DNA of 34,923 bases, taken from a virus. Position numbers and translations under genes: made by a program. The first letter of the stretch is position 1, and every line of letters starts with the position of its first letter. The notes beneath the pieces were generated by a model. That model was not told the origin of the DNA. It was given only the letters and a program-made list of their open reading frames with translations, and did no database searches. The stretch lies in the UHGV virus genome UHGV-0335080; one strand, written 5' to 3'. This document shows positions 721-11,027 of this stretch, in pieces.

Positions 721-2034
721 TTAACTTACTGATTTTAATAAGCCTCTGGTGTCACTTTGGTGACTATGGGGCATCATTGGGACATAATCTGTCAGCTTCT
801 GATTCAGCATTGCGATCTGTTCTGCATTGCTGTCAGTCATCCATGCTCCGTATACATTGAATACCATCTGGGCACTTGCATGGCCCATCTGGCTGGCAAT
901 GAAGCTTGGGTTTGCTCCGGCAGATAATGACCAGCACGCATAAGTGTGTCGTGACTGGTATGCCTTTCGATGCCTGATCCCTGCACGCTTAATGGCTGTT
1001 TCCCATGAGTCACCTACAGAATCGACTTTGTAGACAAAACCTACCTGTTCGCTTTTTCTAACCACTTGAGGGTTAAACACGAAAGTACATTCATGGTTCA
1101 CTGAACGTCTATATTCACGTAGTTGCACCTTGATGTTGTACTGCTTACCCAGTCTTGTCATTTCAGCCTGATTTTTCAGGACACTGATAGCGGGCTGGAT
1201 AAGGTGCACAACCCTGTTTGTGCTTGCTTCAGTTTTCGGTAGAGTGAACTCACCAAGTTTCGTATAATTGCGCCTGATGGTAATTGTTCCTGCCTTCAGA
1301 TCGATATCTTCCCAGGCCAGGGAGACCAGTTCACCGTGACGCATTCCTGTGTACACAGCCAATGACCACAGGTTTTTCGTCTGCTGATGTCGGCAAGCAT
1401 CTATCAGGCGAATAAATTCGTCACGAGTTAGCGGATCTGGCTCTGCCCTGGCTCTTTTAAGAGGCTTAATTCCCTGGAAGGGATTTGCTTCTAAGTAACC
1501 GTGATCTGCAGCAAACTGAAACATTCCAGCGATTGTCGTCATGTAATAATTTACAGTAACGACGCTCCGTCCTTTTGCTGCTACTTTGTTTTTCGTTGAA
1601 TTCTGATACCCGGTAAGCAAATCTTTCCTGATATACAGCAATTCCTCTTTGGTTACCGATGACACCAGTCTACTGCCTCCAATTTTCGGAACCATCGTTC
1701 TTGCAACGGATTCATAGCGATTGAATGCATTTGCAGAGATTTCCATTCGTTTCAGATCCAGCCACTTTTCTTCAAGTTCCTTCACCGTAATTTCTTTTTT
1801 ACTTACCCCAAAAGTCTGAAGGTTGGGGGAGTCAGGGAACTGTGCAGCATAATCAAAGCTTCCTGTGCGGATGGCAAAACATACTGATGTCCGCAGTTCC
1901 CCGGCGATCTTCCTGTTCTTGGCAGTGTCAGGGACACCAAGATTTTCCCTGACACGTTTACCTTTAAAATTAAACCAGATGCGTAATGTGCCGCCGTGGT
2001 TTTCGACGCCTGTTGGATATTTGACTTTATCCAT
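721..2034 (-). CDS. int: Phage integrase, tyrosine site-specific recombinase
   Basis: 437-aa ORF; C-terminal catalytic region with R...HxxR...Y pattern (HSRHTYACW, VFNVYGAWM); GGAGGT RBS; adjacent excisionase; position at prophage end. Confidence 0.9.
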   Translation of the reverse strand: MDKVKYPTGVENHGGTLRIWFNFKGKRVRENLGVPDTAKNRKIAGELRTSVCFAIRTGSFDYAAQFPDSPNLQTFGVSKKEITVKELEEKWLDLKRMEISANAFNRYESVARTMVPKIGGSRLVSSVTKEELLYIRKDLLTGYQNSTKNKVAAKGRSVVTVNYYMTTIAGMFQFAADHGYLEANPFQGIKPLKRARAEPDPLTRDEFIRLIDACRHQQTKNLWSLAVYTGMRHGELVSLAWEDIDLKAGTITIRRNYTKLGEFTLPKTEASTNRVVHLIQPAISVLKNQAEMTRLGKQYNIKVQLREYRRSVNHECTFVFNPQVVRKSEQVGFVYKVDSVGDSWETAIKRAGIRHRKAYQSRHTYACWSLSAGANPSFIASQMGHASAQMVFNVYGAWMTDSNAEQIAMLNQKLTDYVPMMPHSHQSDTRGLLKSVS

Positions 2035-2089
2035 CGATACCTCCAGACGCCCAAGAGCGATACGAGCTTACATATTTCATGATATTAAA

Positions 2090-2326
2090 TCACCTGGGTT
2101 GTTTGTTTTTCATTGAGGCGACCCAGGCATCTATTGCTTTTCTGTTATACATACATTCACTGGAAGGCTTTGGATTACCGTCTGGTGATACGTGAATATA
2201 CTCTCTTCCAACCATCCAGCATTCTTTCCGGGCCCGAAGAATTGTGCCTGGTTTGAGCCCGGTAATTGCGATAAGAACGCTTTCACAAACCCATTCATTG
2301 GGAGCCAGTTGAATCACATTGCCCAT
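2090..2326 (-). CDS. xis: Excisionase-like protein
   Basis: 78-aa ORF immediately upstream of int on same strand; small basic protein resembling lambdoid prophage excisionase-like proteins; GAGGT RBS. Confidence 0.6.
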   Translation of the reverse strand: MGNVIQLAPNEWVCESVLIAITGLKPGTILRARKECWMVGREYIHVSPDGNPKPSSECMYNRKAIDAWVASMKNKQPR

Positions 2327-2334
2327 GTATTACC

Positions 2335-2481
2335 TCACACAACACTCAGCCCACGGCAGTGGCAACACACTTCAAACATTCGCTTCACAACTTCACGACA
2401 GTAGAAGCCGTCAACATCTCGCGTCAGGTCATAGCGATTGCCGTAACGCTGGTGGACCCATCGTTCAAATGCTTTATTCAT
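2335..2481 (-). CDS. Hypothetical small protein (48 aa), Cys-rich C-terminus
   Basis: ORF below the 60-aa track cutoff, translated by hand: MNKAFERWVHQRYGNRYDLTRDVDGFYCREVVKRMFEVCCHCRGLSVV; AAGGAAG RBS; starts 3 nt after upstream gene stop. Confidence 0.3.
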   Translation of the reverse strand: MNKAFERWVHQRYGNRYDLTRDVDGFYCREVVKRMFEVCCHCRGLSVV

Positions 2482-2484
2482 TCT

Positions 2485-2727
2485 TTACTTCCTTTTTATG
2501 GCTCGTAATTTTTTCAGGTGCTTTTCCTGCTCAGTGTCCGCGAGAATTTTGCGGTACTCCTGGTGGTCAATATGTTCGAACAGGCAGTTTAACTCACCAA
2601 TGCGTACCCGCCCGGATCGTCCGTCCATCCGTCGAAAGAACACTGAGTGCTCAGTGATGCGAGTAATCACCACGGGGTATCCGGCTCTGTCCGTGTATAT
2701 CTGACCGCGTTGAATCAAAGCGAACAT
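2485..2727 (-). CDS. Hypothetical prophage protein (possibly DUF4222-like)
   Basis: Track ORF 2485..2781 trimmed to internal Met (MFALIQRGQ...); the upstream MRWRWRWW extension looks like translation of a repetitive noncoding stretch. Confidence 0.5.
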   Translation of the reverse strand: MFALIQRGQIYTDRAGYPVVITRITEHSVFFRRMDGRSGRVRIGELNCLFEHIDHQEYRKILADTEQEKHLKKLRAIKRK

Positions 2728-2811
2728 GTGGTTATCCCCAGCGGCAAATCGAATACACCACCAGCGCCACCGCCATCGCAATTCCTACCGTTGTTAATGC
2801 TTCAGGCCAGG

Positions 2812-3156
2812 TCATCGTAAAATATCCTCCACGCTCATCAGTCCGTTCCGCTCCAGATAACTCATCGCCTTATCCGGTAATTTGCAGTCTGGCTTCGCTT
2901 TCCTCAGTTGCCAGGTTAACTGCTTTACCAGCATGGTTAACTCATCGACCAGACGCTGATATCCCACTGGTTTGTATTCATGCAATTTACCGGCTGGCTC
3001 TGCTGCCAGCGATACCAGTGCGATTTCCAGAACAGCAATATCCATCTTATATGTGCGGATGATGTCATGGTCGATTGTGCCCGGTATGCACAGTCTCTGT
3101 GCTTCAATAGTCTCCTCTGCGTGAGCTATTAACTGCTCTCTGGTAAAAGTCGTCAT
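2812..3156 (-). CDS. Hypothetical early-left operon protein (114 aa)
   Basis: Track ORF; start overlaps stop of upstream gene (ATGA); no recognised domain. Confidence 0.6.
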
Positions 3157-3320
3157 GCCGTAGCCCCTTCTTGATATTTTTCAAACCAGAACACAACCGG
3201 CTCTGCTTCCAGCGATACCAGCGCAATCCGTGCCAGTTCCATTTGTTCACCACGGGTAAGCCCGTTTTCAAGCGGATTTTTAATGAACAATTCAATACGT
3301 TCTTTGGTAATAGTGGTCAT
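3153..3320 (-). CDS. Hypothetical protein (55 aa); paralog of N-terminal module of 3596..4006 gene
   Basis: Hand-translated: [62 protein letters not shown]; about 85% nt identity to 3872-4006. Confidence 0.5.
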
Positions 3321-3330
3321 GTGTTACTCC

Positions 3331-3594
3331 TTAACCCGCAGTGCTTTCAACTGATGAGGGGAACAAAATCTTTTCATCAAACCCTGCATTCATATCATGG
3401 ACAGCAACACACCAATCCATTGACGAACGATTATCAAGAGCCTCCATGATTTCATCCATGCGGCGCAGGTCATACAGGTAAATGCTTTTATCGCCAATGG
3501 TGTAAAAACCAATTTTTTTCGGTGATGGGCAGCGATCAAGAACGTCCTGTAATTCGTTCAACCATGCCCGTTCTTTTTTTGTTAAAGTTGCCAT
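3331..3594 (-). CDS. Hypothetical protein (87 aa)
   Basis: Track ORF 3331..3705 trimmed to Met preceded by AAGGAGAGTGA RBS (MATLTKKERAWLNEL...). Confidence 0.55.
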   Translation of the reverse strand: MATLTKKERAWLNELQDVLDRCPSPKKIGFYTIGDKSIYLYDLRRMDEIMEALDNRSSMDWCVAVHDMNAGFDEKILFPSSVESTAG

Positions 3595-3595
3595 A

Positions 3596-4006
3596 TCACT
3601 CTCCTTTCCCATGAAGCATAGCGGCGCGGCAGGCGTTCCAGCCTGTAGCGTATGCAGCCGCTTTGCTGCTGCCTTCAACTGGCGCATCCTGCCAATACAT
3701 TTCATCCGGCACTACCGGCGCTGGCAAGGCAGCGTGATAGTAGAGTGGCATAGTTTTGTACAGTGGTTCGCCAGGACTTCCGTCAACCTGATTCCATTCT
3801 TCAACCCAGGCATCAACAACCGCTTTGCTGGTTGATACATGTTCTTCTGAATCTACATTTTGTCCTGATATACAGAACATAACTGCCTCTGCTTCCAGCG
3901 ATGCCAGAGCAATTCGTGCCAGTTCCATTTGTTCGCCACGAGTAAGTCCGTTATCAAGCGGATTTTTAATGAATAATTTGATACGTTCTTTGGTTATAGC
4001 GTTCAT
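3596..4006 (-). CDS. Hypothetical protein (136 aa) with duplicated N-terminal module
   Basis: Track ORF 3596..4048 trimmed to MNAITKERIKLF... preceded by AAGGAGAGTGA RBS; N-terminal 35 aa paralogous to 3153..3320 product. Confidence 0.6.
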   Translation of the reverse strand: MNAITKERIKLFIKNPLDNGLTRGEQMELARIALASLEAEAVMFCISGQNVDSEEHVSTSKAVVDAWVEEWNQVDGSPGEPLYKTMPLYYHAALPAPVVPDEMYWQDAPVEGSSKAAAYATGWNACRAAMLHGKGE

Positions 4007-4007
4007 C

Positions 4008-4823
4008 TCACTCTCCTTTGATGCGAATGCCAGTAGCGCGGATTGCATCGATGACTTCAGAAACTTTGTATGCCATTACCGTTTGGTAATCATCGTGAAA
4101 ATCTGTTCGATGAAGCATGCTGCTACGTTCCGGGAGCGATATTTCCCGAGCATCCAGTTCCTTAACGCGCTCCTCCAGTTCGTAGACCCTGCATTGTTCT
4201 CTATCATCAATCAGATATAACCCAAGACATTCGCTTTCTACCCAACCGCCAAAATCATGATCGTAACGCTCACATGAAAACTCACCGTCACCGTCCTTTG
4301 TTGGAATGGTGTAACTATCTAATGGGCCACCATATGTCGGCACATTTCCCAATGTTGGATGCTCAATCCACATGAAAAATGCACGTCCGGTTATTGGGCA
4401 AATATCTGGCCGCCATTGGTTACGAACAGCCTTGGTTTCGGATAATTCTTCAGCGTGTTGTTTTACTTCCTCAAGCTCAACTCTCAGCTTCCCAACCGTA
4501 AGAGCAATATCCTCGTTCTTCTGGTCGCGGCGTTTGATGTATTGCTGGTTTCTTTCCAGCTCATCCAGCAGCGCCAAGACGGTAGCCGGATTGGCTGCAG
4601 CGATGAATTCAGCATTGGCCTGCTGTTCCATTTGGAAATCTTCATCGAAACCGCTTTCAGGATGCGCTCCTTCAATTCTGCAAATGGGAATATATCCAGC
4701 AGCCTCGCGATGAATTAGCGCATCATCACCATCAAATCGGCCCGATCCATATTCGAGCGACCACTCACCACACGTTGCTTTCTCTGCCTTTTCACGCAGT
4801 GCCTGATAGTCAATCTTGCTCAC
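4008..4823 (-). CDS. Hypothetical acidic coiled-coil protein (271 aa), possibly Ead/Ea22-like early protein
   Basis: Track ORF; GTG start with AAGGAGG RBS; central coiled-coil-like stretch; family assignment is from memory and weak. Confidence 0.6.
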   Translation of the reverse strand: MSKIDYQALREKAEKATCGEWSLEYGSGRFDGDDALIHREAAGYIPICRIEGAHPESGFDEDFQMEQQANAEFIAAANPATVLALLDELERNQQYIKRRDQKNEDIALTVGKLRVELEEVKQHAEELSETKAVRNQWRPDICPITGRAFFMWIEHPTLGNVPTYGGPLDSYTIPTKDGDGEFSCERYDHDFGGWVESECLGLYLIDDREQCRVYELEERVKELDAREISLPERSSMLHRTDFHDDYQTVMAYKVSEVIDAIRATGIRIKGE

Positions 4824-5124
4824 TGGTTGCCTCCTTTGCCGGGATTTCTAACTTTTGAGTGGTTGTATCAAATTCAAACAACTTAACCACGTCATCAAAC
4901 AGGACATAATCACCATCAGGATCTTCAGTCATATCTGCGCCACAATCCTGACCGCACGAGTCGCAACCATCCATATCAAGCTCGTATCGCTTCAGGTTTG
5001 CGATATTTGATAAATTCAGCGCCAGTACAGCCAGGTCATAAACCTCTTCGGCAGTGACATCGCTGTTCAGTCCCATTTCATGGCGATATATGATTTTTTC
5101 TACTCGTTGTTTTGTGATCGTCAT
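4810..5124 (-). CDS. Hypothetical acidic protein (104 aa) with CxxC..C cluster
   Basis: Track ORF 4810..5148 trimmed to MTITKQ...; DGCDSCGQDCGAD motif; overlaps upstream gene 3' end. Confidence 0.5.
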   Translation of the reverse strand: MTITKQRVEKIIYRHEMGLNSDVTAEEVYDLAVLALNLSNIANLKRYELDMDGCDSCGQDCGADMTEDPDGDYVLFDDVVKLFEFDTTTQKLEIPAKEATSEQD

Positions 5125-5272
5125 TTTTCTCTTCACTCCGATATACAAGGATTACCACACCCCCTCTGCTGATTGCGCGAGCTGGATCCCCTGGTTCCAT
5201 GCCGTCAATTCCGAAGGCTTCGGAAAACGCATTCATTGCCTTCTGGCGTTCATCCTGCTTACGGCGTTTATT

Positions 5273-5395
5273 CTATTTTTTCAGGAACAACAGCGACAGC
5301 CACCGTCCGCTGCAGAACACGATGTAAAAATAACCAAGGAGCGCCAGGCCGACATTCAGGGCCGTTTCTATGGTTAGTTGTGAGTCAGTTGCCAT
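5273..5395 (-). CDS. Putative small hydrophobic peptide (40 aa)
   Basis: Hand-translated MATDSQLTIETALNVGLALLGYFYIVFCSGRWLSLLFLKK; overlaps 3' end of upstream wHTH gene; below ORF-track cutoff. Confidence 0.25.
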   Translation of the reverse strand: MATDSQLTIETALNVGLALLGYFYIVFCSGRWLSLLFLKK

Positions 5396-5633
5396 TTCTT
5401 ACCTGTTTAAGTAACTGGTTGAACATAACACTTAGGGGATTGCTGTATCCAAACGGCAGATTGTTTACGCAGTACAGAATCATTTTGTTTTTTTCTCCAG
5501 TTCGTACTATTAACCCATTCCACAATAACCGTGATAATTCATTACTGATAGAAGTTGCGCTTCTTCCAAGTGCGAGGGATATATCTTCTCTACTGCAATC
5601 TGGATTTTCCTGGATATACTCGATAACGGTCAT
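5385..5633 (-). CDS. Small winged-helix-like DNA-binding protein (82 aa)
   Basis: Track ORF 5385..5675 trimmed to MTVIEYIQENPDCSREDISLALGRSATSISNELSRLLWNGLIVR, an HTH/wHTH-like pattern. Confidence 0.5.
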   Translation of the reverse strand: MTVIEYIQENPDCSREDISLALGRSATSISNELSRLLWNGLIVRTGEKNKMILYCVNNLPFGYSNPLSVMFNQLLKQVRNGN

Positions 5634-5643
5634 GTGGTCCCTT

Positions 5644-6225
5644 TTACTTAATATCTGTTTCGGATTGCATGCCATGAGTATTCATTTCGTTAATAATTTC
5701 ATCCAGAAGGATTTCAAGCCCTTCTCGACCCATATCTGAAAGAATGAAACCTTTATCAGGGGAAGTAGTGAGCATTTTCTGATAAAGAAACAGCGCTCTT
5801 CCCATTCCTTCAGCTTCGCCGTATTTTTGAATTAAATTCCATTCAATATACTGTTGTAAGGCAAATCGAATGGGGCCGGGATATATCGTCATAAACCCAT
5901 ACATCCCGTTATATACCACGGCGTGTTCAGTTGTTCCGTGTTCATTCAGGATATCAATTGTGCCGTTCTTGTCTTCTTCTTCGTTGATGAATGTCGTCAC
6001 ATACAACCATCGCCACTGAGCAACCTTCATCTCAACCGGAAGTTTACCCAGTAATCCTGCTTCGTCGGCTTGCGCCAGACACTGAAGGATACGTAAACCT
6101 CGCACATTAGGAGTATCGAATTCTCCGGCATCCAGACGACGTATGGCGTCGTGATAATCAATCGTCATACTGCCAGTTCGTATACCATTGGCTGTTGCTT
6201 CAGCCTGGAATTCATCGTATTGCAT
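5644..6225 (-). CDS. Hypothetical protein (193 aa)
   Basis: Track ORF; GAGGA RBS; no recognised domain. Confidence 0.65.
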   Translation of the reverse strand: MQYDEFQAEATANGIRTGSMTIDYHDAIRRLDAGEFDTPNVRGLRILQCLAQADEAGLLGKLPVEMKVAQWRWLYVTTFINEEEDKNGTIDILNEHGTTEHAVVYNGMYGFMTIYPGPIRFALQQYIEWNLIQKYGEAEGMGRALFLYQKMLTTSPDKGFILSDMGREGLEILLDEIINEMNTHGMQSETDIK

Positions 6226-6230
6226 GATAT

Positions 6231-6413
6231 TTATTCCTCATCTTCATCTGCTGGTGCAATAACGTCATATCCTGCCTTTTCTGCAATAAACAGGAATGTT
6301 GAAAGAGTTCCTACAAGTTCATCGTCATGAACATGGCGAATGAATATTACTTTCCCGTTTTTGATGGTCAGCAATACTCTGGTTTGTTCGTGTTCTGCTG
6401 TTTTCTGATGCAT
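6231..6413 (-). CDS. Hypothetical small acidic protein (60 aa)
   Basis: Track ORF; GGGAGA RBS. Confidence 0.45.
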   Translation of the reverse strand: MHQKTAEHEQTRVLLTIKNGKVIFIRHVHDDELVGTLSTFLFIAEKAGYDVIAPADEDEE

Positions 6414-6607
6414 TATTATCTCCCGTATGCTTTACGCAGAAATAAGCAGGCAATATGCATGTAATTTTCACCGTATTGTGCAATAAGGCAGGCGGTCTTG
6501 TGTGATGCCATATTCTTTATAAAAGTCACAATAAAGCCTCCTGTGGATTAAGGTTGTAACAATCCCCGGCGATAAAACCGCAATAAACGTTCAGGGCATA
6601 TTTGTTG

Positions 6608-6973
6608 TTATTGCGCTAATTCTTTTTCGGCAGCAGCTTTTGTATACTCACATGCAAAATTCAGAATTTCGCTGCCGAGTGTTTTCGTTTCGTGATTACT
6701 GGACATATGTAATACCTGTGTTGCATGCAATAAATGATAAACATTTACCGCAAATGAATCAGGCTCCAGGCAAATGCCTTCGTAATTATCTTGCTGTGAG
6801 GTTGTTTCTGTCATTGCTCCTGAAGTGCATACGAGCCTGTTTTTGACAATTCTCTTTTCTCTAATCACTATATCGGCAACATCTATTGCCTTTACAACCT
6901 CCGGGAGAAGTTCCGGGTTTGTATAATCAAAGTCATCAACATGGAGAACAGTTATGTTTTCGAACTTTTTCAT
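6608..6973 (-). CDS. Hypothetical protein (121 aa)
   Basis: Track ORF; GAGGA RBS 4 nt upstream of ATG; separated from neighbours by intergenic gaps, unlike the coupled operon to its left. Confidence 0.6.
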   Translation of the reverse strand: MKKFENITVLHVDDFDYTNPELLPEVVKAIDVADIVIREKRIVKNRLVCTSGAMTETTSQQDNYEGICLEPDSFAVNVYHLLHATQVLHMSSNHETKTLGSEILNFACEYTKAAAEKELAQ

Positions 6974-7101
6974 GGTTTCCTCAGCTGACTTATATGTTCT
7001 GCTATATAGCGAGTCTCAGAAGTGTTTTCATATTAAGACTGTTTCCGCAATGATTGATAAAAATGTTCGCATGTACCTTGAGGGGCGAAGCGGCGATTAT
7101 G

Positions 7102-7605
7102 TCACCATTGGTATTGGTTCTTCCGTAGAAGAGCTTCGCGAGATAAGGGGCAAACTTGTTGAGATGCGTCATGGTGTTGCTGCTCCTCACTTTTTGGTTG
7201 CTCCGGAGGAGTAACCTCACCAGTTAACAGCCACATCGCATCGCAGCCAAGAATATTTGCCAGTGGGATAAGCATACTGATAGTTGGTTCATACTCTCCG
7301 CTCTCCCACTGGATGATAATTTCTTCATCGAGATCGAGCAGCCTGGCGAGTTCGGCGGTTGTTAAGCCGCAGGCTTCGCGTTGGGTGCGAAGACGGTTGT
7401 TGATTGCAGAATTTTTGTTCTGTAAAAGCATTGCTGACGATAGCTTTCTGGATATGCTATTTGTCATATCCCATGCCAGTCCTGCGCATGACTCTATATC
7501 GCTAGAGAGCGTAGCATCAGGTGTTGCTTTTGCTATTAGTGTAATGAGGCTGCCGAGGTTTTTCAGTTCTTCGAGACAGTCAAGAGTTGTAGCTTTATTG
7601 ATCAT
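7102..7605 (-). CDS. HTH (XRE-family) domain protein, 167 aa, first gene downstream of cI
   Basis: Central HTH motif (LRTQREACGLTTAELARLLDLDEEIIIQWESGEYEPTISMLIPLANILGCDAMWLLTGE); GAGGT RBS; start overlapped by operator-like inverted repeat. Confidence 0.7.
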   Translation of the reverse strand: MINKATTLDCLEELKNLGSLITLIAKATPDATLSSDIESCAGLAWDMTNSISRKLSSAMLLQNKNSAINNRLRTQREACGLTTAELARLLDLDEEIIIQWESGEYEPTISMLIPLANILGCDAMWLLTGEVTPPEQPKSEEQQHHDASQQVCPLSREALLRKNQYQW

Positions 7606-7610
7606 GAGAT

Positions 7611-7690
7611 GATACCTCAGTTACGAACTTTGTTTTATGGTAACTAAGGTATCAAGGCGTGGCAAGTAATTTTTGATACTTTGGTTTCTT
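7611..7690. promoter_or_regulatory. Operator-like site cluster (OL-like) downstream of cI, with candidate leftward promoter
   Basis: TGATACCTCAGTTAC (7611-7625) and its inverted copy GTAACTAAGGTATCA (7642-7656), plus TGATACTTTGGTTTC (7676-7690); possible TTGCCA-N17-TACCAT on minus strand. Confidence 0.4.
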
Positions 7691-7708
7691 TTTGTGTTTT
7701 GTGTCTGG

Positions 7709-8365
7709 TCAGAAAATATCCCATCTGGCATCAACCACAACACCTACTATTTCGCAATCATTGTCCATTTCTATGATTGGATATTGTGGATTAAGGGGCT
7801 TTAGAAACGCCTTTCCCATGTCAGAAATATATTTTTTGAATGTTGCTTCATTGGTGGATTTTTTTCTGGCGATGACGTAACACCCTGAAAAAACTTCTTT
7901 ATCTGGGTTGACAAGGATCGACATTCCTTCAGGAAATGTTATTCCTACGGGCGAAGTCATTGAGTCTCCGTGCACTTCCAGCCAGAACCCCCTCTCACCA
8001 GCGTATTTTACAGAATGCCTCCAATTATCCTGATCATACATGTTGTAGTCATCACCAGAAGTTGCGAATAATCCTGCCTGAACCCAGTTAATTACAGGGT
8101 AAGAGTGTGCTGTGTCTCTCTGTGGGCAGCTCTTAACATTATTTTCCCAATGCTTATCTTTTTCATCTCCGTTCTGAAGCCACTGCGGTGAACACCGCAG
8201 TGCAGCTGCAACTTTAAAAAGGGTGTCACCGTTGAAACTTTTTGTAAGGCCTTGCTCGGCTTTACTTATTGCAACTCTGGTGACCCCAGCTTTTTTAGCC
8301 AACGCATCTTGTGTTAACCCAGCTTTTTGCCGTGCGTTGATGAGACGTTCACCTAAAGACTTCAT
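7709..8365 (-). CDS. cI: CI-like prophage repressor: N-terminal HTH plus C-terminal LexA-like S24 autopeptidase domain
   Basis: HTH_XRE motif (LTQDALAKKAGVTRVAISKAEQG); Ala-Gly candidate cleavage site (VQAGL); Ser in GDSM and downstream Lys (ARKK); GAGGAG RBS; track ORF trimmed to MKSLGERL. Confidence 0.9.
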   Translation of the reverse strand: MKSLGERLINARQKAGLTQDALAKKAGVTRVAISKAEQGLTKSFNGDTLFKVAAALRCSPQWLQNGDEKDKHWENNVKSCPQRDTAHSYPVINWVQAGLFATSGDDYNMYDQDNWRHSVKYAGERGFWLEVHGDSMTSPVGITFPEGMSILVNPDKEVFSGCYVIARKKSTNEATFKKYISDMGKAFLKPLNPQYPIIEMDNDCEIVGVVVDARWDIF

Positions 8366-8386
8366 TTTTCTTCTCCTCTCATGGCT

Positions 8387-8462
8387 GTTGATACTAAAGT
8401 AACAGAATTTCTTGATACTTTGGGTTCCTGTGGTTAACATCGTTGGATAACAAAGTATCTGG
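8387..8462. promoter_or_regulatory. Operator-like site cluster (OR-like) between cI and rightward genes, with candidate PR
   Basis: TGATACTAAAGTAAC (8391-8405), TGATACTTTGGGTTC (8414-8428), inverted AGATACTTTGTTATC (8446-8460); TTGATA-N17-TAACAT rightward promoter-like at 8412-8439. Confidence 0.45.
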
Positions 8463-8476
8463 TGTGAGACTAAAGA

Positions 8477-8704
8477 ATGACCCTTTATGAAATATTAAAA
8501 ATTCAATTTAAAACCAATGCCGCTATTGGTCGCAGGTTCCCAAAGAAAGGAAGGCCTCGTGGCAGTCAAGGTGTTGGAAAGTGGAAAACGCGAGGTGTTC
8601 CGGAGGATGTTGCCATTCTTTGTCATCTGGATCCGAGCATTCCATATACACACCCAAGTCTAGCGAATACAGAAGATGACAAGCCCACAGGAGACCAACA
8701 ATGA
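8477..8704 (+). CDS. Uncertain small basic ORF (75 aa) in the Cro position; may be noncoding
   Basis: Stop overlaps Rha start (ATGA), but weak RBS, no HTH and low-complexity basic composition; an alternative 48-codon ORF exists in another frame. Confidence 0.25.
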   Translation: MTLYEILKIQFKTNAAIGRRFPKKGRPRGSQGVGKWKTRGVPEDVAILCHLDPSIPYTHPSLANTEDDKPTGDQQ

Positions 8705-9516: not shown

Positions 9517-10179
9517 ATGATCATTTCAAGACCAAATATTGATTCTGCAATTTCGGGACGTTACACTGTCTCCGCACCTTATAAAGCGGGTGCCGGGATT
9601 GGCGTCCTGAAATTGTCAACGGCGATGTATGACGCGCCAGCGTCTTTTTTATCGTCCGCATTTGCTCACATCCAGATTATGGTGGGCTGGGCGGGGGCAC
9701 CGAAAGGTGCGCCGGTCTCCGTTGACGCCGGTTACGCCAACCCCGTCCAGTTCACCACCAGTGAAATTGGCGTTTCCGGTGGTGGAAGTTTTTCACTGTC
9801 AACGGAGGCTGCCATCATGGCTACTGTCCTAACTTCCCCATTCCTAAAAATCGAAGTCGTCAACGGCAAGGCCGTTATTTTCTCCCTGCATGTTGCCTGC
9901 CATTTCAAGCGCATGCACCAGAACATCGTTGACAAAATCGAGTATCTGAACTGCTCACGCGAGTTTTTTACCCGCAATTTCATACCGGGTACTTATCACA
10001 TCTACGGTGACTCCCTGCGTGGTTATTACATCACCCTTGATGGTCTGATGATGCTTCAGCTTGGGTTAAGTCTGCGCACAATGCGGTACTACGAGAGCTG
10101 TATTGAAGCATTCCATGAGGCTGAAACCGTCCAGGGTCACTCCGCGTTCCGTCGTAATCAACGGGAGGTGCACCTATGA
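9517..10179 (+). CDS. Rha-domain protein with unrecognised Gly-rich N-terminal domain (220 aa)
   Basis: C-terminal Rha-like segment (KIEVVNGKAVIFSLHVACHFKRMHQNIVDKIEYL...); N-terminal about 100 aa paralogous to next gene. Confidence 0.65.
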   Translation: MIISRPNIDSAISGRYTVSAPYKAGAGIGVLKLSTAMYDAPASFLSSAFAHIQIMVGWAGAPKGAPVSVDAGYANPVQFTTSEIGVSGGGSFSLSTEAAIMATVLTSPFLKIEVVNGKAVIFSLHVACHFKRMHQNIVDKIEYLNCSREFFTRNFIPGTYHIYGDSLRGYYITLDGLMMLQLGLSLRTMRYYESCIEAFHEAETVQGHSAFRRNQREVHL

Positions 10180-11027
10180 TCCGCCACCAGCATATTGATT
10201 CTGCAATTCCGGGACGTTACACTGCTCAGGCACCTTATAAAGCGGGTGCCGGGCGTGGAAACCCGAAATTCAATATAGAGCACAACCGCGCTCATGCGGT
10301 TTTTTCGTGTCATGAGCATCGTTACACCCAAATTATGGTGGGGCGTGCAGGGCCAACTTCGGTTGGGCCGGGTTCTATGTTGACCGGTATTTCCACCCCT
10401 GTACGTCTCACCACCTATATGGTCGTGGAAAGCCTTGGTGGTGAGTTCATTGAATTCAACATAGGGGCTGTCACCATGACTACTCTCCCAACCCAATCTC
10501 ACCCTGAAATCACGATTATCAATGGTCGCGTTGTCACCACATCTCTTGCAGTAGCTAATTACTTTACTAAACGGCATGAGCGGGTTTTAGATAGAATTAG
10601 AAACCTCGAATGTTCCGCTGAATTTACTGAACACAATTTTGTGTTAAGTGAATACACCGACGCATCAGGCCGCAAACTCCCTTGTTACCAAATCACCCGC
10701 GACGGTTTTGCGTTTCTTGCCATGGGCTTCACTGGTAAACGTGCTGCCCAGTTCAAAGAGGCATACATCAACGCCTTTAACCTGATGGAGAAGAGTTTAT
10801 CAGGTGCCGATGCGTCTGATATGTCAGCTGTCGCACGAAACGCCAGAGGCGTATACCTGCATTTGCGTGAAATCCATCAAATCTGGACAAGCCAGCTTTA
10901 TCCAATGCTTAAGGCCGTTGAATCTCCGCTGGCTAGCAAACTGTACGACCGTGTTGGTGATGCTGTTTTTGGCGCTGCACTTGTTGATTCCAGGCTGAAT
11001 GGTTCTGACAAGGAGGTTCGCCCATGA
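10176..11027 (+). CDS. Rha-domain protein, paralog of upstream gene (283 aa)
   Basis: Rha-like segment (ITIINGRVVTTSLAVANYFTKRHERVLDRIRNLECSAEF...YQITRDGFAFLAMGFTGKRAAQFKEAYINAF); shared N-terminal domain; ATGA-coupled start with GGAGGTG RBS. Confidence 0.7.
   Translation: MIRHQHIDSAIPGRYTAQAPYKAGAGRGNPKFNIEHNRAHAVFSCHEHRYTQIMVGRAGPTSVGPGSMLTGISTPVRLTTYMVVESLGGEFIEFNIGAVTMTTLPTQSHPEITIINGRVVTTSLAVANYFTKRHERVLDRIRNLECSAEFTEHNFVLSEYTDASGRKLPCYQITRDGFAFLAMGFTGKRAAQFKEAYINAFNLMEKSLSGADASDMSAVARNARGVYLHLREIHQIWTSQLYPMLKAVESPLASKLYDRVGDAVFGAALVDSRLNGSDKEVRP

Follow-up and report, generated by a model that had tools for sequence, protein, structure and literature searches.

The Ea22 variants of lambda and Stx phages share a head and a coiled coil, and their CTDs are unrelated (PMC10834534, PMC7093339). 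Full-length lambda Ea22 is tetrameric, and its N-terminal/coiled-coil region has been implicated in, but not shown to mediate, the tetramerization (PMC10834534). The genes compared here, orf55 and orf136, begin with a common head, which we call N1. Similar to the Ea22 variants, N1 genes keep the head constant, vary the C-terminal modules, and lie in the same region of the genome, and the two groups share the K/RGE-stop junction and actual bodies, i.e., P0181 and P0143 carry the body of orf136 under an Ea22 head. N1 differs from the Ea22 head in that orf55 and orf136 have no match to PF13935 and in that a short helix-loop-helix is predicted in place of an N-domain followed by a long coiled coil. 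The P22 EaA, HK620 HkaE, 'Eaa', DUF550, and DUF551 proteins have their N-terminal 42 to 44 residues in common with N1 (77-95% identity by tblastn), and the P22 EaA/HkaE-type genes resemble those described here in their early-left operon position by xis/int, their modular build, and their Pro-rich linkers. Unlike P22 EaA, orf55 and orf136 lack the dATP/dGTP pyrophosphohydrolase domain PF04447 (no Pfam family at E ≤ 0.1), and unlike the DUF551 proteins, they have no match to PF04448; orf55 differs from its EaA kin by being head-only, and orf136 by having a body without a Pfam family. As in the phages of Martinsohn et al. 2008 (PMC2327257) and in the modular genome hypothesis (PMC9836094), the exchangeable modules are bordered by short conserved stretches, and crossovers fall within these. 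Unlike in the boundary-sequence model, however, the N1 and linker stretches are intra-coding protein modules under purifying selection, so that exchange would shuffle sub-gene domains and not just whole genes.

The window, i.e., the whole stretch of 34,923 nt that was analyzed, is an E. coli lambdoid prophage whose insertion adjoins yecE, for example in strain AVS0969. Its 1.2-kb segment 2812-4010 recurs in 129 complete genomes, with 99.8-99.9% identity. The minus strand carries int (721-2034), xis (2090-2326), the gene for a CI/LexA-like repressor (7709-8440), and every gene in between; the N1 genes therefore belong to the xis-proximal part of the leftward early operon, known as the exo-xis or "ea" region. 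Their position, strand, and tight packing with Shine-Dalgarno (SD)-stop-ATG and ATGA junctions are those of an exo-xis mosaic cassette, as is the occurrence of one module with differing neighbors across related phages, joined at conserved sequences. A scan of 2000-8600 gave 12 promoter-like sites (13.2 expected) and 9 terminator-like sites (6.1 ± 2.8 expected), none of which was judged meaningful; counts this near to the shuffled expectation are consistent with a single operon. No Red/RecET/Erf-type recombination gene was recognized among the genes scanned in the early-left operon (2812-7700, minus strand), nor was any phage recombinase in those parts of the window that the scans covered. The operon also encodes a small winged-HTH protein (5385-5675; DUF4752/MarR-like) and an HTH protein (7102-7605) with RmrA/capH-like HTH matches in PADLOC. 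On the plus strand, two tandem genes with Ash and Rha (antirepressor-like) domains (9517-10179 and 10176-11027) each hold matches to the isrK sRNA and the C4 antisense RNA (isrK 9574-9650 and C4 9675-9762; isrK 10230-10306 and C4 10331-10418), and they are a duplicated c4/ant control module resembling P1/P7 immI, repeated every ~656 nt. A full-length match to the STnc100 sRNA (165 bits) is located at 17098-17303 on the plus strand, just upstream of a gene for a 620-aa DUF1737/SASA esterase/DUF6645 protein (17525-19387).

Table 1. Repeat copies and genes of the N1 region, in window coordinates
Feature	Position	Strand	Description
Repeat copy A	3187..3332	-	SD AAGGAG, N1 head, and linker coding sequence of orf55; reference copy in the repeat search
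Repeat copy B	3873..4018	-	End of the Ea22-like gene (KGE-stop, doubling as SD), N1 head of orf136, and linker; 86% identical to copy A
orf55	3153..3320	-	55 aa: N1 head (residues 1-42) and 13-residue tail
orf136	3596..4006	-	136 aa: N1 head, linker, body (MFCISGQNVD...PLYYHAALPAPVVP), and C-module (EMYWQDAP...GWNACRAAMLHGKGE)
orf114	2812..3156	-	Diverged head (MTTFTREQ...), common linker (2995-3024), and phrog_660 C-module
orf87	3331..3594	-	phrog_1714; between the two N1 genes
Ead/Ea22-like gene	4008..4823	-	271 aa; Pfam PF13935, E 2e-32
104-aa gene	4810..5124	-	Diverged head of the N1 kind (MTITKQRVEKII...); RefSeq CDS; start motif

As shown in Table 1, the N1 region is built around a direct repeat of 146 nt. 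The repeat search of the window found its copies 686 nt apart, and MAFFT concurs. Over the 135 nt given in the earlier note (3186-3320 and 3872-4006), the identity is 87.4%, in agreement with its estimate of about 85%, and neither the repeat search nor MAFFT gave a lower similarity than had been judged by eye. The chance probability of at least 125 matches in 146 positions is ~3e-44 per pair and still ~4e-35 when multiplied by all position pairs in the window, and the repeat pair is therefore not a product of chance. It takes in the SD and the first ~44 codons of both orf55 and orf136. The comparable ribosome-binding context that had been noted ahead of the two copies consists of AAGGAG, 6 nt, and ATG in each (TTAAGGAGTAACACATG and CAAAGGAGAGTGAGATG). 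The letters of the two translations in the earlier note are likewise correct, the one correction being that both genes are read on the minus strand. Its wording of a stand-alone domain plus a domain-fusion paralog describes orf55 and orf136 accurately; two further genes of the same pattern had been missed, however. The first is orf114, in which a 29-nt linker-coding segment (2996-3024) is 90% and 83% identical to those of the other two genes, and the second is the 104-aa gene, whose head is a diverged homolog according to PHROG matches. The 112-aa ORF reading of the latter is matched by phrog_3126 from residue 9, with weak matches of the head to phrog_3323 and phrog_60, and phrog_5117 matches orf136 over its full length. 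N1-type heads are thus scattered over different PHROGs (phrog_3323, 60, 660, 10451, and 5117), which is a sign of a module common to unrelated proteins. A 150-aa reading of orf136 from the ATG at 4048 is possible; homologs begin at the N1 methionine. A protein identical to orf136 (P0121) is encoded on at least 1000 contigs, and the counterpart of orf55 in phage vB_EcoS-689R5 carries the label 'EaA protein'.

N1 was defined by its sequence, as a match that starts from residue 1 and ends in the linker ...ARIALASLEAEPV; both orf55 and orf136 begin with such a match. A tblastn search of 50,697 phage records found the head in 86 of them (Salmonella, 51; Escherichia, 22; Yersinia, 3), where the matches fall under eaA of P22 (77% identity over 44 aa), 'Truncated P22 EaA' of g341c, hkaE of HK620, and DUF550- or DUF551-labelled genes, with source names such as 'Eaa protein' and 'DUF550/DUF551 ..., partial'. 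In an exhaustive HMMER search of 1.84 billion representatives of 50% identity clusters, at least 453 clusters contain N1 (201 at E ≤ 1e-10), with scores near the maximum throughout. Among the matches listed, N1 begins at residue 1 or 2 in 148 of 150 representatives, the lengths of which range from 53 to 457 aa. Pfam assigns DUF551 to 34 of 118 N1 proteins scanned, dATP/dGTP pyrophosphohydrolase (formerly DUF550) to 15, and Caudo_TAP and Glyco_hydro_19 to 1 each; the remainder have no Pfam domain. A locus set was also compiled (n = 84), comprising the window, three reference loci, and 80 IMG/VR loci that are the best matches to the query and not an unbiased sample; its 89 N1-headed ORFs run into 16 unrelated continuations. 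Judged from these sequences, N1 appears to be a portable N-terminal module of ~42 residues, which heads accessory proteins of the P22 EaA type in the lambdoid exo-xis region. It is probable that the repeat in the window represents this EaA-type head, which is attached to many bodies and exchanged at conserved heads and linkers, and that two of its alleles have come to lie in one operon.

The substitution pattern indicates that N1 is conserved as a peptide. Across 36 unique N1 DNA sequences, the mean dS is 0.288 and the mean dN is 0.041 (ratio 0.14), and the minority-base counts at codon positions 1, 2, and 3 are 48, 30, and 199, respectively, which is the pattern of a peptide that is translated from the minus strand in this frame and is under constraint. 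The AF2 model of orf55 (37-sequence alignment; mean pLDDT 80) has residues 1-40 at 85-91 and two helices (residues 6-14 and 23-38) joined by an NPLxNGLT loop, and its 13-residue tail is of low confidence and without secondary structure. The model of full-length orf136 is poor (pLDDT 49, with N1 at 64-71), and the same two N-terminal helices are visible in it. When the orf55 model was compared with PDB structures by Foldseek, nothing matched, as is to be expected of two helices alone; profiles of N1 and orf136 retrieved no meaningful PDB sequence, and Pfam, NCBIfam, and PADLOC gave nothing for orf55, orf136, orf114, and orf87. One might suppose that N1 is conserved at the DNA or RNA level only, as a recombination hotspot, a translation-initiation cassette, or an antisense element, and that the peptide is irrelevant. 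The mapping of crossovers within N1, described below, would suit this reading, as would the start of the gene: codons 1-8 (MTTITKER; ATG A.. ... ATTACCAAAGAA) as well as the SD junctions are kept even among heads with unrelated middles, and all head variants start with M-T, M-N, or M-S. The fourth base is consequently always A (window starts 3318-3320 and 4004-4006, and all loci), which permits an ATGA stop/start overlap of the kind used at orf55/orf114 (3153-3156). Against this, synonymous variation exceeds nonsynonymous variation ~7-fold, variation is concentrated at the third positions of the minus-strand frame, and the fold is predicted with confidence. The notion is very unlikely, and a purely DNA-level element was rejected on the substitution pattern of N1. 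The antisense ORFs on the plus strand (3171-3449 and 3825-4220) were also rejected as the selected frame, because the third-position variation fits the minus frame.

The earlier note had interpreted the repeat as an intra-operon duplication. A recent tandem duplication or gene conversion within the operon, with the short ORF as a duplicated stub, would account for two direct repeats with a spacing of 686 nt within an operon, and also for the restriction of the two-N1 layout to the window-type prophage (L003 and L005-L008), a single N1 being found in 73 of the 84 loci. The distances are not those of a recent event, however. The two N1 copies of the window differ by 11.9% over the first 126 nt, whereas that of orf136 is 4.0% from the N1 copies heading AWKVTFTQ... 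and SQTYNLPE... bodies, and that of orf55 is 3.2% from the copy heading LYQSCTRP...; the Nei-Gojobori values for the window pair are dS 0.36 and dN 0.08. In addition, 26 loci have the orf55 allele together with its tail, and most of them have no orf136 gene. Recent local duplication is thus extremely improbable and was rejected on the N1 DNA distances and dS. Since each copy is nearer to N1 copies elsewhere than to the other and since dS is 0.36, the two are distinct alleles of a circulating module, which appear to have been united by cassette exchange.

Two natural recombinants suggest where such exchange occurs. Between orf193 and the start of the Ea22-like gene, the locus L010 (IMG/VR UViG_2529292907_000023) matches the window at 98.9% identity, and from inside the orf55 N1 through int it does so at 99.4%; it is without the 686 bp in between, i.e., without orf87, the body of orf136, and one copy of N1. 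Its sole N1 is a chimera, with a 5' half of the orf136 type and a 3' half of the orf55 type. Eight successive informative sites through codon 22 are of the orf136 type, and all but one of the later ones are of the orf55 type, the exception being a site at which the orf55 of the window has a private Val; the switch therefore lies between codons 22 and 24. The suggestion in the earlier note that the repeat is a substrate for homologous deletion is in principle supported by this locus. L010 also has a different Ea22 body, and the event may accordingly have been an exchange in trans and not a deletion in cis; in either case the crossover lies inside N1. It is the sole natural N1 × N1 chimera found, and among complete E. 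coli genomes no exact match to its single-N1 layout was obtained, the 14 best having an insert of ~274 nt relative to L010. In L061, the N1 head is fused directly to the orf114 C-module, and the N1-type and orf114-type similarities of the DNA overlap exactly in the 34-nt linker sequence. Crossovers thus lie inside N1 in L010 and inside the linker in L061. Lambda Red recombines 22%-diverged DNA efficiently (PMC2327257), and both loci are consistent with this known capacity of phage recombinases on diverged DNA.

The same joints recur on a larger scale. Among the 3,312 homologs of orf136 (E ≤ 1e-3), its body (MFCISGQNVDSEEH...PLYYHAALPAPVVP) sits behind at least eight different heads, which include N1, the Ead/Ea22 N-domain, MTTITREQALKIIEAADEV..., MTTFTDKELIKEIKERIGSLDV..., MATIPKKWLQRKIADLES..., MTTITRENAEIKSFITG..., and MNAVTNDELFDEIPG..., and a single conserved linker, (I)ALASLEAE(A/P)V, is found at every head-body joint. 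Further recurrent joints are PAPVVPE and the position after GWNACRAAMLxG, where the protein either ends (KGE-stop) or runs via AEPVSQTYKL...SPVTPDGW into DUF551; P0122 and P0123, for example, are orf136 plus DUF551. This mosaic composition explains an annotation artifact. In some assemblies, PGAP has split the 136-aa ORF, which is intact in the window, into two overlapping in-frame 'incomplete' pseudogenes, 'DUF551 domain-containing' and 'hypothetical' (L003 4803-5195, corresponding to 3614-4006 of the window), and in other assemblies orf136 is annotated as a normal hypothetical protein. That codons 1-42 of orf136 are labelled DUF551 is due to the resemblance of this head to longer proteins such as P0122 and P0123. 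The literature calls the exo-xis region 'highly mosaic' and notes 'full or partial gene duplication' in it (PMC8614690). The N1 case is an ordinary, very clear instance of lambdoid exo-xis mosaicism and not a new system or a new kind of biology.

The gene junctions take part in the same design. The C-terminal K/R-G-E tripeptide of Ea22 proteins was called 'of unknown significance' (PMC7093339). In the window, both the Ea22-like gene (4008-4019) and orf136 (3596-3607), on the minus strand, end in a KGE/SD junction, and the last codons of the former, AAA GGA GAG TGA, provide the SD for orf136. The K/R-G-E of Ea22 is the in-frame reading of an SD that belongs to the translationally coupled gene downstream (...ATC AAA GGA GAG TGA G ATG), which is a simple explanation of the C-terminal motif. 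The ea22 gene of lambda itself (L084 1048-1060) ends with an identical ...GGCATTCGCATCAAAGGAGAGTGAGATC, and its downstream ATG is now ATC; this end appears to be a relic junction.

The head-only gene orf55 raises the question of its function. This 55-aa ORF occurs in 26 loci and is intact in every one, and the order orf87 > orf55 > orf114 is found in all 24 that could be judged, with upstream neighbors of orf87 that vary: the N1-headed orf136, a 146-aa protein in which the orf136 body has another head, a small membrane protein, or an XF1762-family protein. The earlier note proposed a regulator/target or decoy relationship, in which the free head of orf55 would titrate, cap, or compete with an N1-headed protein or a common partner. 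Both ORFs indeed have the same confidently predicted head, the genes are co-transcribed, and the head-only ORF is intact with a good SD in its 26 loci, its tail being also found behind two further heads (P0108 and P0117). Nevertheless, both partners occur together only in L003 and L005-L008. Of the 26 loci, 15 have the orf87 > orf55 > orf114 unit and no further N1 gene, in 4 others a non-N1 head precedes the orf136 body, and most orf55 loci have no other N1-headed gene within 1.6 kb. These counts argue against a dedicated pair and make this relationship quite unlikely, although N1 heads may interact with each other where both genes occur. Alternatively, orf55 could be a nonfunctional leftover, a head stranded when the head-plus-body cassette of orf114 recombined in behind it. 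The 13 structureless, low-confidence residues of the tail would be in keeping with this, L061 displays what would be the unsplit form (N1, linker, and orf114 C-module), and annotators name similar ORFs 'Truncated P22 EaA'. A leftover is nonetheless not expected to remain intact in all 26 loci with an optimally spaced SD or to have a tail conserved behind three different heads, and the ATGA coupling would make translation of orf55 useful for the expression of orf114; we regard this origin as somewhat unlikely. The intact ORF, the good SD, and the ATGA overlap suggest that translation of orf55 may matter, at least for coupling to orf114.

The reading of N1 as a portable, exchanged head can be put as a mechanism. 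The genes of the operon would be built of small modules, between which lie conserved Pro-containing linkers and gene junctions (AAGGAG-TGA-N-ATG or ATGA). Conserved stretches of 30-150 nt would then be sites of homologous or homeologous recombination between co-infecting phages and resident prophages, by which heads, bodies, and whole genes are swapped, and such an exchange may have put two N1-headed genes into one operon. In this mechanism, orf55 would be N1 plus a 13-residue, probably disordered tail, kept within the translationally coupled orf87-orf55-orf114 unit. As for the protein, a hairpin of two amphipathic helices on its own would in most cases leave a hydrophobic face exposed unless a partner covered it. 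From this need for a partner and from the exchangeability of N1 with the N-terminal/coiled-coil region of Ea22, we infer that N1 may be a common oligomerization or adaptor handle for variable C-terminal modules. A bolder version, which we think improbable, is that N1 and its sister heads (...ALASLEAEPV) form a docking or hetero-oligomerization handle for a mixed complex of interchangeable effectors, in which orf55-like ORFs cap or compete. If it were true, the effectors brought together would be a dNTP pyrophosphohydrolase, DUF551, and many bodies of other kinds, and the result would be a combinatorial 'constant head/variable cargo' system tuning the lysis-lysogeny decision or host takeover.

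A 42-residue module that heads at least 453 clusters has no Pfam or NCBIfam model, and annotation pipelines consequently mislabel intact mosaic genes, as PGAP does with orf136; the practical value of N1 lies in domain definition and annotation. The exo-xis/ea region influences the lysis-lysogeny decision in Stx phages and is the least understood lambdoid region, and the N1 genes provide a clean, well-populated case of sub-gene domain shuffling within it.
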